Of a stretch of DNA of 64,000 nucleotides, positions 8,737-59,232 are shown piece by piece (positions within the stretch are counted from its first letter, which is position 1; the number at the start of each line of letters is the position of its first letter). The notes beneath the pieces are model-generated. The model saw nothing but the letters and a program-made list of their open reading frames with translations, was not told where the DNA came from and did no database searches. Made by a program: the position numbers and the translations under genes. Source of the stretch: Malacoraja senta (taxonomy: Eukaryota); contig CM075992.1 of the NCBI GenBank assembly GCA_038087875.1, positions 9,178,001 to 9,242,000 of the forward strand, read 5' to 3'.

Positions 8737-8936
8737 NNNNNNNNNNNNNNNNNNNNNNNNNNNNNNNNNNNNNNNNNNNNNNNNNNNNNNNNNNNNNNNN
8801 NNNNNNNNNNNNNNNNNNNNNNNNNNNNNNNNNNNNNNNNNNNNNNNNNNNNNNNNNNNNNNNNNNNNNNNNNNNNNNNNNNNNNNNNNNNNNNNNNNNN
8901 NNNNNNNNNNNNNNNNNNNNNNNNNNNNNNNNNNNN
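8737..8936. other. Assembly gap (200 N)
   Basis: Run of exactly 200 N. Confidence 1.
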
Positions 8937-28165: not shown

Positions 28166-29494
28166 GGTGGGGGAGGGATGGAGAGAGATGCAGGGGTTAC
28201 TTGAAGTTAGAGAAATCAATATTCATACCCCTGGGTTGGAAACTGCCCAAGCAAAATATGAGATGCTGTTCCTCCAATACGTGAATACGTGACATTTTGG
28301 GTCGAGACCCTTCCTCAGACTGAGATTCAGGAGAGGGAAACTAGCTCTGCCATTTATAGCAACGAATGCATGCATGTGTGTTGGACTTTAGTATTGAATA
28401 ACACGAGTGGGTTGAGTGTTTATAACATAGGGACGGCCTGTACTTTAACTTTAGCACCTCATAATTTTATGCATTTCTAATAAATCTGCCTCCAGTTTAT
28501 CCAATCCTTCCTCATAGCTGAAAACTTCCAAACCTGCAATATTCATAATCTCTGCTGCACTTTCAGCAGTGCAATCACAACTTTCTTGTAATGTAGTAAG
28601 AAAACTATATGCTGTTCTCAAGATGTGGTTTTGGTTGCAGCATAAACTTCCTGCACTTACGTTTATCTGCCGCATCTTTAGACTTTACTGATACAACTTG
28701 GAAACGCCGACCAGTGATCATCTCGTGCACTAACACTATCCTACATGCGAGGGACAATTTACAATTTGAAGCCGATTAACCTATAAACCTGTACGTCTTG
28801 GAAGTATGGGAGGAAACTGGAGCACCCGGTCTCAGGGAATGAACGAGACACCTAATGAAATATCCTCTGCCTTTTGTCAATATGGACACAAAGTGCTGGA
28901 GTAACTCAGCAGGTCAGACAGCATCTTTGGAGAACATGGATAGGTGACATTTCGTGTCAAGATCCTTCTTTGGCTTATCCTCTGCCATATTTGATGGAAC
29001 CCTCAGATGCACTTCCTCCCTCCTGCCCAGACAGAATATAGCCAGTGTTTCCGAAATCCGCATCTTGCACCTTACAGCGTCCACATCCAGCCCGTCACCA
29101 TTTCTACCCTTTGGCCCACTAAGTCCACGCCGACCATCGATCACCCATTCACACTAATTAGGGTCTTAGAAACAGGCCCTTTGGGCCGAATTGTCCATGC
29201 TGACCAAGATGCCCAATCTACGCTAGTCCCAACTGCCCGCCTTTGGCCCATATCCTTCTAAACCTTTCCGATCCATGTACCTGTCTGAATGCCTTTTAAA
29301 TGTTGTAGTACCTGCCTCAACTACCTCCTCTAGCAGCTTATTCCATATAACACCAACTTCGGTGTGAGAAAGTTGCCCCAGGTTCCTATTAAATCTTTTC
29401 CTTCTCACCTTAAACCTCTGCCCTCTGGTTCTTGATTTGTCTACTTTGGGTAAAAAAGTCTGTGGATGCGCTCTATCTATGTCCCTCATGATTT

Positions 29495-32400
29495 CAGGGC
29501 TGCCAACTCTCACGCATTGAGCTTGAGAATCACGCATTTCGCCAAATTCTCATGTTCTCACGCTGATCACAGAATTTCTCACGCTCTGTCATGAGAAATT
29601 CTGTGATCAACAAGAATTTCAAAACAAATATCAACTGCATGGGCCGCGGGTGTTGGAGAGCGGGGCGGAGGGAGGGATGGAAGCAGAAGCAGCGGTGGGG
29701 ACAGATGCGGACGGGGAGCTGGGGCTGGCGAGGGTTTGCCAGGCTGGCGAGTGTTTGCCGGGCTGTCGAGTGTTTGCCGGGATGGCGAGTCGCTCGCTGC
29801 AGCTCCGGCCATGGATCAGCTTCAGTTCAAGAGTCCCGGGCCGTCTGAGGTGTCAGAAGCATTGCGCCGCTGCCGTGAGAGTCTCTGTGCCGAATTCGCC
29901 CTGGTGACCAGCATGGACCAGGCTGCGGCTCGGTGCATCCTGGAGGACAACCAGTGGCTGCTGGAAGTAGGTGCCAAGCACTGGGTAGAAGGGTGGAAGA
30001 TAGTGGCCCTTCAAATGAGGGTGGTTGGAGAAAGCATCCTGCTTGCTTGCTAGATTTTCACTTACTGTAACTGCAGGAAAAATGTTAGGGGGAGTTCAGA
30101 ATCAGGGATCACTCAGCTTAAGAATAAGGGGTTGGCTATTTAGGACTGAGATGAGGACAAACTTTCTTCACCCAGAGAGTTGTGAATCTGTGGAATTCTC
30201 TGCCACAGAAGGCAGTGGAAGTCAATTCACTGGATGTTTTCAGGAGAAAGTTACATTTAGCTCTTGGGGCAAGCGAAATCAAGGGATATGGGGAAAAAAC
30301 AGGAAAGAGGTACTGATTTTAGATGAACAGCCATGATCATATTGAATGGCAGTGCTGGCCCGAAGGGCCGAATGGCCTATTCCTGCACCTATTTTCTATG
30401 TTTCTATGCTTGAGTATATGGCAATAAAACTCGACCACTTGATTTTGAAGCATTCATGCTTGGTGGAGGTATAATGTAGTCATAGAGTGATACAGTGTGA
30501 AAACAGGCCCTTCGGCCCAACTTGCCCACACCCGCCAACATGTCCCAGCTACACTAATTGCTTTTGGTCCATATCCCTCCAAACCTGTCCTATCCATGTA
30601 TCAGTCTAACTGTTTCTTAAATGTTGGGATAGTCCCTGCCTCAACCACCTCCTCTGGCAGCTTATTCCATACACCCACCACCCTTTGTGTGGAAAAGGTT
30701 ACCCCTTAAAAAGTTACCTCTTAAAAATACGTCAAACAAAAACCATTGAAATCATACTTCTACAATGCACTAAAACATGATTTTAATACATCAAATTTCA
30801 AAACGTCCCTACCACCACTCAGTTGCTCCACTCCCTCGCCGGGTACCCCCAATGCCAGTGATCAGTGATCGCTCAGCCTCGCCACTATCAAAAATGCTCC
30901 ACGGCCCCTGGTTCAGACGGAGAGCACTGCCAGATGTGAGTTGAGAACTGAGGCCAGTTGTCTGTGATGTCTGGATCCCAATGCTCAGCGCTTCGTGTTT
31001 CAGAGTTGGCTAATTTTATTGATTTGTTATTAGCCTGATTTGTAATTAATTGACAAAACCTTAATTTATGAATCCAGAATATCCAGGGGAATGGGATAAG
31101 TGTAATATTAAAATGACATGCAAGGTGTCAGGCTGTCTGTCACAACATACAGCCCCGATAACCCATTATTTCCTTCAGTTAAATATTGGGAAGGTGGCAC
31201 TATTGTCATTTGCCACTCAACTATTATGTTTGTTCACCTCACTGACTATTTCTAAACACCCCCCCCCCCAAATTCCTTTGACCGGTTGAATAGAAATGTC
31301 CCCAATCTCATTGTTTTATTAATTGAACACGTAGATGAACATCCTCAAGGAGTGTAATCAGATGGAAACTGATTCAGATGCGATGTTTAAGAGCTTGTTC
31401 AAAGAAGGGGGATATTTTAAAGAAGTGACAGAGATACTTGCTGGGGAATGTGTGAGGAAGTTATTATTTGTCTTTAGTTTTAGCTTGAACCAGGACATCT
31501 GAAGATTCAAAGTTTAATATAGTAATTGTGCTGATACTGACTCCAACCAACCACGTAATGAATATCATCCATTCCGGAGGTTTTATTTTTCTGATGCCAT
31601 TTAAACTTCACTTGGATTTCAATCACTCCAATGTAAAAGTAATTGAGAATGGGGAGCATTGGAACAAAAATTTGCCCTCGGTACATATTAACTGTAATAT
31701 AATAATGTATGCATGTTGGTATGTGCAATCAAAACAAAGATCTTTTTTATGATTGTTGTGATGAATACCACAGAAAATATTATGTACTCTCAAGATCACA
31801 TTTAATAGAATATTATTGCTTAAATATATAGTTATTGGACTTTGCATTTCGGAAATGTCCCAGCTGAGAGGAAGACAGCAAAATACTGAAAATATTGGGG
31901 GTGAAAATGACTTCAGGACAGTTTGTTAGGAAAATTAAGGAAATGGTAACAGAATACTTATACAGCTGAGTGAGTATAATTTTGTGGATGAGAAATTGTG
32001 TTCAACCAATTGATGACTTCTTTGACAAAGTAACTAGCATGTTAGATAACAAGGAAGCCAATGAATGTAGCAAATTTTGTTATACAAAATTTGGTCCGTG
32101 AAGTGCTCCATAAAAGATTACCGCATTAGATAAGCACCTGTGGATGTAATAGGTTAAGTCCAGGGGGTCAGATATGGGGCTTTATATGTGGGCCAGATAT
32201 ATTGTCAGTGCAGAGGGTCTAGGAGCAAGGCCAAGTGTGCATCCAGAGACAAGGTCTGGAATAGTACTAAGTGTGCAGTCAAAGCTGGGACAATGGGAGT
32301 GTTCAGCACTGGGAACCTAAGCAGGTAAGCAGCTATGATCAGGGTAGCATAGGAGGCCAGGTGTAAGGCTGGACTCAGGGTCAGGAATGAGAGATGGTAT

Positions 32401-32824
32401 GCAACTGGAGTCCGGGTCAGGAGCAGTACCAGGTGTGCAGTGAGACCCAGGTTGGTCAACATGGGCCAAGTGCTTGATTATAATCTGATTTCCATACATG
32501 AATACACTAAGATCATTCATGTGCTGCACCTGTTGATCAGAGCCTGGCTCTACTGTGGAATGTAATTAGGAATGTAATTTTATTCATAGCTAATCCAATT
32601 TAAAGCATAAATATTGCATTCAAGTGTAAGTTAAAAGACTCGCGACAGTACACACCAGATTGCACAATCTCAAGCTGAAAAATGCAAAAGCTCCGTACCA
32701 ATGGGAGGAGGGAAACCACCCTCCCACACCCTCTCCCCCTCCCCCCATCCGGTCGCTACGCTCCCTCGGGCTTGGTCTCTCGCAATTTCTCACTCCCAAC
32801 TCTCACCCAATGTTGGCAGCCCTG
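29495..32824. mobile_element. Non-autonomous TIR DNA transposon (Pack-type), 13-bp TIRs, 6-bp TSD, carrying a host gene fragment
   Basis: CAGGGCTGCCAAC (29495-29507) and GTTGGCAGCCCTG (32812-32824); TGATTT on both sides; subterminal TCTCAC(GC) repeats at both ends; removing it rejoins a CR1 fragment (CCCTCATGATTTTATACACC). Confidence 0.8.
29811..29966 (+). pseudogene. TDP2: Captured first exon resembling tyrosyl-DNA phosphodiesterase 2 (N-terminal UBA-like region)
   Basis: GCCATGG start; MDQLQFKSPGPSEVSEALRRCRESLCAEFALVTSMDQAAARCILEDNQWLLE resembles TDP2 (RRLLCVEFASVASCDAAVAQCFLAENDWEME); followed by donor GAA|GTAGGT; no downstream TDP2 exons recognised. Confidence 0.7.
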
Positions 32825-34059
32825 TGATTTTATACACCTATTTAAGATCATTTTCCACCCCCCATTTTGCCAAATGGGGCATCAGACTATAGCTGAGAGA
32901 GGTTGGGGGGAAGGAAGGGGGCAAGTTTGGGTAACCAAATCTTTTTTCAGAAACAATAAACAATAACATTCAATTTCAGATTGTGATAGATTTCCACTAC
33001 ACTGAATATCAGAAATAAACAGGTCATTAATTAGTAGGAAGGGACTGCAGATACTCATTTACACCAAAGATAGATACAAAATGCTGGAGTAACTCCGCGG
33101 GATAGGCAGCATCTCTGGATAGAAGGCATGGGTGACGTTTTGGGTTCCGAAGAAGGGTCTCGACCCGAAACATCACCCATTCCTTCTATCCAAAGATGCT
33201 GCCCGCTGAGTCACTCTCAGGTAATTAATTAATTATTTTTCATTGAGGTTTCACAAGACCACTGATCTTCATTACCTGTAACTCTAGGCTTGGGCAAATA
33301 CATTGTAAATAGGATGAACCAAACAATGTTCTCAGGGAAATTTGCCGCACCGAGGGCCCACCCCTGCCTTCTACAGTGTTTCTGTTATTAGTAGTAAATA
33401 TATAAAATTAGAACCCAGGGATAGCCAAATGTTTAGTGCATGTGCCTTAAGGTTATTTAAAAGTTAAAGCTCCTCTGCCACCAGTTGATGACCACTGTGT
33501 ATCGCTGGCATCAAGGGCTGCCGTCGTGTTAATGACAGAAAATACTTCAGGTGCAACTCAAATGTGGACCAAGAACAAGCACTCATACAACTACTGTACT
33601 GCTAATAACCTACTTGTCAGGTCAACACTATCAGTACATAGAACTTGTGGTGGATAGACACAAAAAGCGGGACAGGCAGCATCTCTGGAGAAAAGGAATG
33701 GGTGACGTTTCGGTCGAGACCCATCTTCAGACTGAGAGTCAGGGGAGAGGGAGACTAGATATATGAAGGAGTAAGGTGTGAAAAGGACAGATCAAAGTAG
33801 ACGATGGTCAAGGAAATGTAGAACGGTTCATTGTTAGCTGAGGGGAAGGTGACAACGGGGCATACAATCAGTAAAATTAATCAAGATGACAGTGAAACAG
33901 GTCGGAGAACGAGGGTGGGGGGGGGGGGGGTATGGAGAGAGAGGGAAAGTAAGGGTTACCTGAAGTTAGAGAAATCAATATTCATACTTATAGTAGTTTA
34001 ATGCTACATCACCCCCCCCCTCCCCTCATAAAAAAGCGAACAATTCCAGGCTCACTCAC

Positions 34060-36479: not shown

Positions 36480-37030
36480 CCCCTCCCTTCGCCCAATGCC
36501 CCCCGGTGTGTGGAGCTCACGTCTTTCCCTGGCACCAGGCCAATGTGGCGTCTCACCGTCGCTCCTGGGCCAAGGCATGGATGGCTCCCACCGCCGGCAC
36601 CTCCCCGCCGCCCCCTCCCCCTTCCCCTTCCCCTCCCCCCCAGGTCCGTTGCTAAGGGCCGCGCCGACGTCAGACGGCCTCTCCCCCCCTCCCCGTGACG
36701 TCGGACAGCCTCTCCTCCCCCCCCCCCCCCATCGCCGTGACGTCAGACGCCGGGCACCCCGCGCTTTTCGCTGCATGCGGGAGGCCGAGGCCCGGACCAG
36801 ACGGAGATGGACGGCAGGTTCCGCACCGCACCGCTCGAAGCCGCAGCCGCACCGGGGCGCTCCCTCAGATGGAGGGATGCTAAGGTACTTCACTGAACCG
36901 AATGACAGTGAGGGGAACACTGGGGGAAAGGGCCGCGTACGGGAACACGCGTCGGGCCGGCAGCGGTTGCCATGGGAACGCGGCGCCGGGCCTTCCCCGT
37001 GGTGGTGGGCTCGAAGGAGCTGCGGGGGGT
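36480..37030. promoter_or_regulatory. CpG island promoter, probably of SYCE2 and possibly bidirectional
   Basis: Dense CpG; CRE-type sites at 36666-36672, 36696-36703 and 36738-36745 (TGACGTCA); X-box-like GTTGCCATGGGAAC at 36966-36979 and GTTGCTAAGG at 36648; minus-strand donor ACG|GTGAGA at 36557; plus-strand donor AAG|GTACTT near 36884. Confidence 0.7.
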
Positions 37031-57431: not shown

Positions 57432-58660
57432 TCAGTTTAGTTTTCTTGCTTCATAAGGAAGGTAGTGAGAGTGCACTACAATTGTTGTATAATTCAGTTT
57501 GAGGAAGTCTTTCCTATATCGTTTAAGCCTTTGGTATCGTTTCAGCCTTTTCTGTTGTTCATTTATTGGTCCACTTAAGTCACATCTCTGGTTCTTCATC
57601 ACGAAGTAAGATCTATATTGTCTTTGCAATACAACAGTGGCTTTGATTTGTGCTCTGTATAGTTTTCTTGTTTTATAAGCACGGTAGTGAGATTGCACTA
57701 CAACTGCTGTATAATTCAGTTTGAGGAAGTCTTTCCTATATCGTTTAAGCCTTTTGTATCGTTTCAGCCTTTTCTGTTGTGCCTCTATTTGTCTTCTTAA
57801 GTCTTTCCTATACCAACTCATACGGAGTACTGACTGAACTTTTACAGTAGCTCTCTTTTGCTTAACCCACTGCCTAATCACCATACTCTTGTAGGCAGCC
57901 TGAATGGTAATAGTTGCATCCCTCATTGACTGATATTGCACAAACTGGGAACGCCCTATTTTGCATGCTTTGTACCATCTCTGGATCGAAATGACTGCTT
58001 GTTGCATAGCTCTGTAACGTACCCTTAATCGGTAACCACGGTATGCAGCTTGCAGAATGACTACAGCCACCTTTTGCATCAAGAAATGCTTTCTTGTAAT
58101 GCACATCCTTATGAATGACTTAATATGGCGTGCTGCCTTGATTTTCTCAAACAATACTCTGGTTTTGATCCCGCGGTATAACGCCTGAATACAAACCACT
58201 GCTTTTCTCAAACTATTATAATGTCTCACTTGGACATTTCTTATCTGGCATGCTCTGTATCGTTGCTGTACCGCAATGGCAGACCAGCGTAGTTTCTTGA
58301 AATACTGACGCTGTTTATGCATCTGATAATAAGTCTGTATGACCTTGGCAGATTTGTGCATGCACCGCAATTGCTTTCGAACAAGCATTCCTCGGTAGGC
58401 AGCCTGAAGCAGCACAACGCTGCTGCGTACCTTCATGTAAGTTTTGCGATCACTTTCCATTTGAAGGTGTGCCCTATAATGGGTTTGTACTATTATAGCT
58501 GCCAATCTCATTGCCTTGTATTGACAGTATACTCTGTGCATTCTAAATGCTGCTTGTATTACCATTGCTGCCTTCTGTTTGTTCCGGATCTCTCTCCATA
58601 GCTTCATACCCCTGAATTCAGCTTGAATAGCTAGGGTTGCCCTCTGGATGGCAATGTCCC
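57432..58660 (-). CDS. ASPM: IQ-repeat block derived from abnormal spindle-like microcephaly-associated protein, inside the LTR element
   Basis: About 14 IQ motifs (IQAEFRG, IQAAFRM, VQTHYRA, LQAAYRG, IQTYYQM, VQQRYRA, IQALYRG...) with 23-23-27 residue spacing, the higher-order repeat typical of ASPM; a fragment, not the ASPM locus. Confidence 0.85.
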
Positions 58661-59232
58661 TTTGCATTTGACTTCTGTCCTTTTGCACTTGACCTTTGTC
58701 TCTTTGCACTTGACCTTTTTTCTTTTGCACTTGACCTTTGCACTTGACCTTTGTCCCTTTGCACTTGATATTTGTCCTTTTGCACTTGACCTTTGTCCTT
58801 TTGTACTTGACTTTTGTCCTTTTGCACTTGACCTTTGTCCTTTTGCACTTGACCTTTGTCCTTTTGCACTTGACCTTTGTCCTTTTGCACTTGACTTTTG
58901 TCACTTTGCACTTGACTTTTGTCCTTTGAGGTACTACCTGCACTCTTTAGTTCAGGCTCCTTGCCTCTGGATGCCCTTGGAGGTTTTGGTGAGAAATGAG
59001 CCATTAATGCCTCCTTACACTCCTTGTACATTTTATCCGTGGGCTTTGCTGGCCGCAGCAACATATGTAAGGTGTGATAATCGTCTCTTCCTAAGACTAA
59101 TATGAACCATGCTCTCTTCTTCTCCTCTGCAGTGATATCAATGGAAATGAACGAAACCAAGACTTCAGTCCATTTCTCAAAATTGCACCCAGAATCTAAC
59201 TGGGGCAACTTTCCTACCATTTGAATAGCCAT
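58618..59232 (-). CDS. Gypsy/Mag-type Gag N-terminal domain followed by repeat linker
   Basis: AGCATGG start; MAIQMVGKLPQLD...WTEVL...EEKKRAWFILVLGRDDYHTLHMLLRPAKPTDKMYKECKEALMAHFSPKP follows the typical Mag-clade Gag N-terminal pattern. Confidence 0.75.
   Translation of the reverse strand: MAIQMVGKLPQLDSGCNFEKWTEVLVSFISIDITAEEKKRAWFILVLGRDDYHTLHMLLRPAKPTDKMYKECKEALMAHFSPKPPRASRGKEPELKSAGSTSKDKSQVQSDKSQVQKDKGQVQKDKGQVQKDKGQVQKDKSQVQKDKGQVQKDKYQVQRDKGQVQRSSAKEKRSSAKRQRSSAKGQKSNAKGHCHPEGNPSYSS
58670..58928 (-). repeat. 21-nt tandem repeat (CAAAGGTCAAGTGCAAAAGGA)n encoding (KDKGQVQ)n
   Basis: About 12 units; one unit near 58725-58750 is only 13 nt long. Confidence 0.9.

Follow-up and report, generated by a model that had tools for sequence, protein, structure and literature searches.

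The described system nearest in behaviour to the family reported here is HelibatN3, a Helitron of the bat genus Myotis that carries the NUBPL promoter, 5' UTR, exon 1 and partial intron 1 in about a thousand copies, and for which a fusion transcript with SGSM3 has been reported (PMC4224331). Among elements with terminal inverted repeats (TIRs), Tan et al. (2021) found 370 animal Pack-TIRs, exemplified by Pack-hAT-N8_XT, which holds the CAPSL 5' UTR, and Ssk-FB4; only four cases (1.4%) in 100 reference genomes were multicopy, with an example of three copies (PMC8277862). Plant Pack-MULEs are multicopy and consist of GC-rich 5' gene fragments captured at the DNA level (PMC8277862). The hAT5 and hAT6 groups, which have target-site duplications (TSDs) of 5 and 6 bp, respectively, fall in a lineage with Blackjack (PMC12730594).

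Within the 64-kb stretch of DNA analysed here (the window), an outer TIR element, Y, occupies positions 29495-32824 and encloses the 5' end of TDP2. It is a Pack-TIR by definition: host DNA lies between paired TIRs, the parental gene is not flanked by them, an intron has been kept and re-transposed copies have distinct TSDs. This agrees with the initial annotation, which had called the locus a Pack-type TIR transposon. As in the animal Pack-TIRs, the cargo is GC-rich 5' sequence and the parent is unlinked, on another contig, but the published multicopy example has three copies and the TDP2 family more than 1,000. The accompanying remark that such elements are little described in vertebrates is contradicted by the 370 animal Pack-TIRs and borne out for multicopy families, of which that survey lists almost none. 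The word "nested" is absent from its main text (PMC8277862), whereas here one Pack element rides in a second TIR element. HelibatN3 has the same kind of cargo, disperses a first exon and reached the same scale in a vertebrate, but it is a rolling-circle element without TIRs and has a reported fusion transcript, whereas the TDP2 family consists of elements with TIRs and TSDs, unlike a Helitron-type carrier, which has neither. MULEs are characterized by long TIRs and by longer TSDs, in contrast to the 13-15-bp TIRs of the TDP2 elements, in which a single cargo expanded into a far larger family. Among the openly accessible papers listed in literature searches, none describes a transposon that carries TDP2. 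Taken as a whole, the locus very probably represents a high-copy, non-coding TIR family whose cargo is TDP2 exon 1 with the beginning of intron 1, and which has a three-step nested origin.

The 13-mer CAGGGCTGCCAAC occurs once in the 64-kb window, at 29495, and its reverse complement once, at 32812-32824 (all features lie on the forward strand unless stated). Both ends are bordered by TGATTT, at 29489-29494, within a CR1-type host fragment, and at 32825-32830. The 143-bp left arm (29495-29637), which is also present in an undeleted form (L218), comprises the TIR (29495-29507), TCTCAC repeats and a hairpin (29564-29609) with 18-bp arms and no mismatch; subterminal TCTCAC words lie at 29508, 29556, 29577, 32788 and 32801. 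The TIRs, TSD, repeats and hairpin were thus all present as first described. The interior at 30916-32471 is common to family copies, with a mean pairwise difference of 6.0%; its origin was not found, and the frames scanned gave no Pfam match. It is followed by a right block (32472-32824), common to sibling families, that includes the right TIR at 32812-32824. The proposed rejoining of a split CR1 host on removal of Y was seen in 9 of 69 CR1-type matches, which cross the junction with one TGATTT-like word when 12 bases past it are required, and in 0 of 50 when 30 bases are required; the alignment extends only ~20 bases right of the junction, where the host fragment stops.

Window positions 8937-64000 have a 99.8% duplicate ~80 kb upstream, across a 200-N gap at 8737, which is likely an assembly overlap or a very recent duplication, and the window copy and its twin were therefore counted as one insertion. 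Elsewhere in the window, a 504-aa open frame on the reverse strand (57435-58946) matches the IQ calmodulin-binding motif (PF00612, E 2.4e-22), and a CpG island at 36500-37000 (71% GC) contains three TGACGTC words and frames without a Pfam match.

The cargo consists of TDP2 exon 1 followed by ~740 bp of intron 1 with its CR1 fragments, and aligns collinearly with both parental genes at 81-88% over window ~29642-30706 (element ~149-1212). Its first part (29640-29970) has 66% GC and a CpG observed/expected ratio of 0.76. The TDP2 leader and first coding stretch (29650-29810) contain a GC box at 29662-29670, the first ATG of the parent at 29677 (in the frame of paralog A) and a 19-bp tandem expansion at 29722-29790; because this expansion shifts the frame, the first ATG is out of frame in the window, leaving a second ATG at 29811 in a GCCATGG context. 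The remainder of exon 1 (29811-29966) provides 52 open codons, including the start of the UBA-like domain, and ends at a GTAGGT splice donor at 29967; the exon is 24 nt shorter than in both parents. The Kozak ATG, the 52 intact codons and the donor had all been read correctly from the sequence, as had the presence of a GC box, although it starts at 29662 instead of about 29661. The resemblance of the peptide to the TDP2 UBA-like N-terminus is upheld by a match to the human TDP2 UBA structure (PDB 6q00, E 6.6e-5) and by 78% and 72% matches to skate TDP2 proteins, from which the genome is likely that of a skate; its Pfam UBA_4 match (E 0.0012, 19.1 bits) is slightly below the 21.8 cut-off. Donor and captured intron span 29967-30706. 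The LINE pieces noted downstream of the exon are indeed present (30082-30706) as two CR1-type fragments (~30082-30408 and ~30479-30706); both parents have them in this order, and they came along with TDP2 intron 1.

A full-protein search (best 113 of 1,701 candidates) found TDP2 exons 2-7 only on contig C19, with exon 1 matches spread genome-wide. The search for a parental gene thus led to two tandem, intact 7-exon TDP2 genes, A and B (C19:4603402-4712576), whose exons are all open. Exons 2-7, with the phosphodiesterase domain, are absent from the element, and the possibility that the window holds the true TDP2 locus was rejected because, among the 113 matches scored, these exons lie only on C19. 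In the 136 kb fetched around the two genes, no Y TIR lies near exon 1 of A or B, and the right arm of the inner element X (described below) has no match. The cargo is also without the private intron insertions of A (273 bp) and B (1,168 bp). Since the intron is collinear with the parents, no exons have been joined and the parents lie elsewhere without Y TIRs, the DNA-level capture of the TDP2 5' end by a TIR element, as originally proposed, is supported. In paralog B the first ATG is missing, and exons 2-5 contain numerous amino-acid changes. An intron of paralog A contains a sibling element with Y ends (C19:4687337-4691275; L103:1337-5275), which has three stacked left ends, a TTTAGT TSD and a different CpG-rich, promoter-like cargo with TGACGTC and CCAAT words; its relatives are common among loci anchored on the Y right end.

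A search of the genome with the cargo produced 2,022 candidates, of which 40 were scored; each of these was close to full length, and 38 aligned at 88-93%. Genome-wide matching returned 1,048 places for the exon end plus donor, 884 for the left junction and 981 for an exact 24-mer of the Y right end, with no matches to any control. These counts are lower bounds because the patterns missed some sampled copies, recovering 13/15, 11/13 and 10/21, respectively. TDP2 exon 1 is therefore present at more than 1,000 places, in the sampled copies inside transposable elements, and the number of exon copies is reasonably put at about 1,200. Some elements hold two junctions. The left junction is bridged by contigs from runs of two other organisms (coded C and H), so the family also occurs outside this assembly. 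Contigs of four runs cover the element; the RNA nature of these runs is a guess and contigs reveal neither level nor strand, so they are silent on expression.

The left Y TIR begins 34 of 39 fetched copies and 19 of the 39 have both ends. All 19, which include two duplicate pairs (one in a TG repeat), have a 6- or 7-bp TSD at no more than one mismatch, and none has an 8-bp TSD. In a separate, right-end-anchored sample of 40 loci, a piece of exon 1 is present in 17 and a TSD in 29, of 6 bp in 15, 7 bp in eight, 5 bp in three and 8 bp in three; two of the latter are one duplicated insertion and the third is in a G run. Paired ends thus recur with distinct, matching TSDs, confirming that the two TIRs belong to one element and rejecting the idea that they derive from unrelated insertions. 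Such a mixture of TSD lengths within one family (5, 6, 7 and rarely 8 bp; L176-L215) is unusual for a TIR element. Several structural variants were also seen: in seven loci (L189, L191, L194, L205, L210, L211 and L213) the left part is duplicated, giving two partial TDP2 exons with a GA-rich tract between them; three short elements (L195, L215 and L132; ~320-380 bp) have Y ends and a different interior; and C2755 and C6156 contain head-to-tail arrays, the former within a TG microsatellite.

One copy (L075, C5:40737762) has TDP2 behind a different left end, and a search with this end returned 376 candidates that define the inner element X. This element is ~1.9 kb long, has the ends CATGGGCCGCGGAACC and GCTCCGCGGCCCCTG, and carries a TDP2 segment that starts with ~57 bp of promoter-proximal sequence and reaches ~100 bp deeper into intron 1 than in the window; the full left end is present in L217-L245. 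Free copies of this X-Pack element were two-ended in 11 of the 20 fetched, with a 5-bp TSD at no more than one mismatch in 7/11 and an 8-bp TSD in 0/11, and L220 and L222 are further free copies with a 5-bp TSD. X without cargo was not found. L075 itself has an 18-nt exon deletion like that of the Leucoraja TDP2 protein instead of the 24-nt deletion of the family, and L228 and L230 represent a third form.

In the nested form, X with a shortened right arm lies within Y, ~390 bp from the Y left end, and is followed by GTTCAGACGG as in the window. A search with the Y inner left arm gave only nested X-Pack copies among the 30 loci fetched, with X directly behind this arm in 29 and a damaged X end in the other. 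At four loci the site is free of X and GTTCA is present once, although these loci resemble the element for only ~30 bases right of this word and most have no nearby Y TIR. The left-side GTTCA is kept in L332 and the right-side GTTCA in copies of subfamily G2; no single copy with both was seen. Given the four empty sites and the left GTTCA of L332, this word is the putative TSD of X in Y. Comparison with the nested copies identifies the 12-bp stub CATGGGCCGCGG at 29638-29649 as what is left of the X left TIR, joined to the TDP2 leader through a deletion, and 30719-30910 as a remnant of the X right arm with its TIR at 30896-30910, next to the predicted right TSD (GTTCA, 30911-30915). The TIR-like end at 30910, which had been regarded as an orphan, is therefore the right end of X and pairs with the stub at 29638; the existence of free and nested X copies rules out the orphan reading. 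In comparison with free X-Pack, the window copy has lost ~600 bp of the X right arm and ~100 bp of the intron. Two deletions, each at short matching words, further define the window form: one runs from Y position 143 to the first base of X, the other from the 12th base of X to the TDP2 leader. The pattern of the exact window X end matched only the window and its twin and was too specific.

These forms suggest how the element was probably assembled. X would have acquired ~1.2 kb of TDP2 at the genomic DNA level and moved on its own, before one X-Pack copy whose right arm was already shortened inserted into Y, duplicating GTTCA. Deletions at short matching words would then have taken out ~250 bp of Y, the greater part of the X left arm and the promoter-proximal piece, yielding the window form, which would have been spread furthest by the Y ends (mostly with 6-7-bp TSDs). 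All forms would have expanded in one burst, after which the exon would have decayed neutrally, leaving most copies as passengers, while the transposases were likely supplied from elsewhere and were probably hAT5/hAT6-like. We infer this order of the forms, and transposases acting in trans, from forms that are each seen with their TSDs and from a parent that is identified. In a tree built from 54 cargo sequences, the copies radiate like a star, with tips of ~0.04, and the parents form a clade (100/100); the tree leaves the order of the three forms open (29/51 inner branches), so this order rests on structure.

The initial annotation had also considered the element probably hAT-related. The canonical 8-bp hAT TSD does not fit, as it was found in 0/19 and 3/40 Y loci and 0/11 X loci, and none of 70 loci examined has a transposase with X or Y ends (150 PF05699 loci were scored of 1,648 candidates), nor was clear hAT homology found inside any of 225 loci. 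The superfamily is therefore only provisionally assigned. What stands in favour of a relationship is that TSDs of 5 and 6 bp occur in hAT5 and hAT6: X has the hAT5 length (7/11, plus L220 and L222), and 6 bp, the hAT6 length, is the mode for Y (15/29), with 7 bp also common (8/29). Short TIRs and subterminal repeats are further points of likeness, whereas the 5-8-bp range of the Y TSD, with many of 7 bp, and the failure to find a transposase for either element are points of difference. As a lead, "hAT5/hAT6-like" fits X and, loosely, Y. One copy of subfamily G3 (L307) lies beside, not around, a hAT domain.

Copies of the cargo are 7-10% apart and 10-13% from the parents. The divergence between A and B is 6.8% over the cargo, with values of 3-10% (mostly 5-8%) for the collinear blocks outside it. 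As the divergence between A and B is like that among the copies, the TDP2 duplication and the burst appear to be of similar age. Selection on the exon was assessed in 27 unbiased, length-intact copies, leaving out copies with length changes and five near-duplicates: 47 of 152 changes were synonymous against 40.7 expected, a neutral pattern (dN/dS-like ratio 0.82, p 0.27). Protein-ranked copies gave 0.45 (p 0.001), in a set that is biased because it was chosen for protein similarity.

It is conceivable, if unlikely, that some copies act as the portable first exons proposed in the initial annotation, whose ATG, UBA-like peptide and donor splice into downstream host exons. After removal of duplicate loci (5/82), the GT donor is kept in 32/39 and 13/14 copies of two samples, and the commonest donor, GTAAGT (47/77 copies), is nearer to consensus than the GTAGGT of the parents. 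An open 52-codon frame with GT persists in 23/39 and 6/14 copies, amid common stops and frameshifts, G1 and G2 copies retain the promoter-proximal piece, and the NUBPL-SGSM3 fusion in bats provides a precedent. Against this, the substitution pattern is neutral, no host coding exon was found near the window copy (142/280 frames scanned) and protein searches returned TDP2 itself and two unspliced read-through predictions with no fusion protein, although the latter is weak evidence. The suggestion that the element disperses a promoter is weakened by subfamily G3, that of the window copy, which has lost the ~57-bp upstream piece and retains ~35 bp upstream of the first ATG, and by the GC box, intact in only 1/39 and 1/14 copies. 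The cargo probably has no function in most copies, which would be inert passengers. More speculative, and improbable, is a host response to this flooding, in which small RNAs or chromatin directed against the exon, or UBA-only peptides, pressed on TDP2, with a contemporaneous tandem duplication of the gene and some copies serving as first exons elsewhere.

Two other origins for the family were considered and have very little to recommend them. Capture of TDP2 in a single step by Y, with the end at 30910 being an unrelated fragment, might be suspected from the window copy, which keeps only 12 bp of the X left end, but it is refuted by free X-Pack copies with the same cargo and their own 5-bp TSDs, and by nested copies in which X is intact within Y. 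Least probable of all is an origin of the copies by segmental duplication, retroposition or assembly artefact. The 99.8% twin across the assembly gap and the arrays on C2755 and C6156 are of this character, and the twin alone may be an artefact, but the family as a whole is spread over no fewer than 15 large contigs, and its copies are 7-8% apart and differ in their flanks and TSDs. The retained intron, the absence of exon 2 and the junction in contigs from other organisms also speak against such an origin. Capture by X, followed by nesting in Y, is the origin that we favour.

As this family shows, a coding exon captured by cut-and-paste-type elements can be multiplied in a vertebrate to the thousand-copy scale of bat Helitrons, two to three orders above published vertebrate Pack-TIR copy numbers. 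Piggy-backing, by which a small Pack element acquires another pair of ends, is one route to such amplification, and its steps are open to study here because all intermediates survive. In skates, the element copies confound TDP2 mapping and annotation, and a thousand cassettes, each combining an ATG, a UBA-like stretch and a splice donor, offer a natural experiment on exon shuffling and on how one DNA-repair gene is affected in trans.
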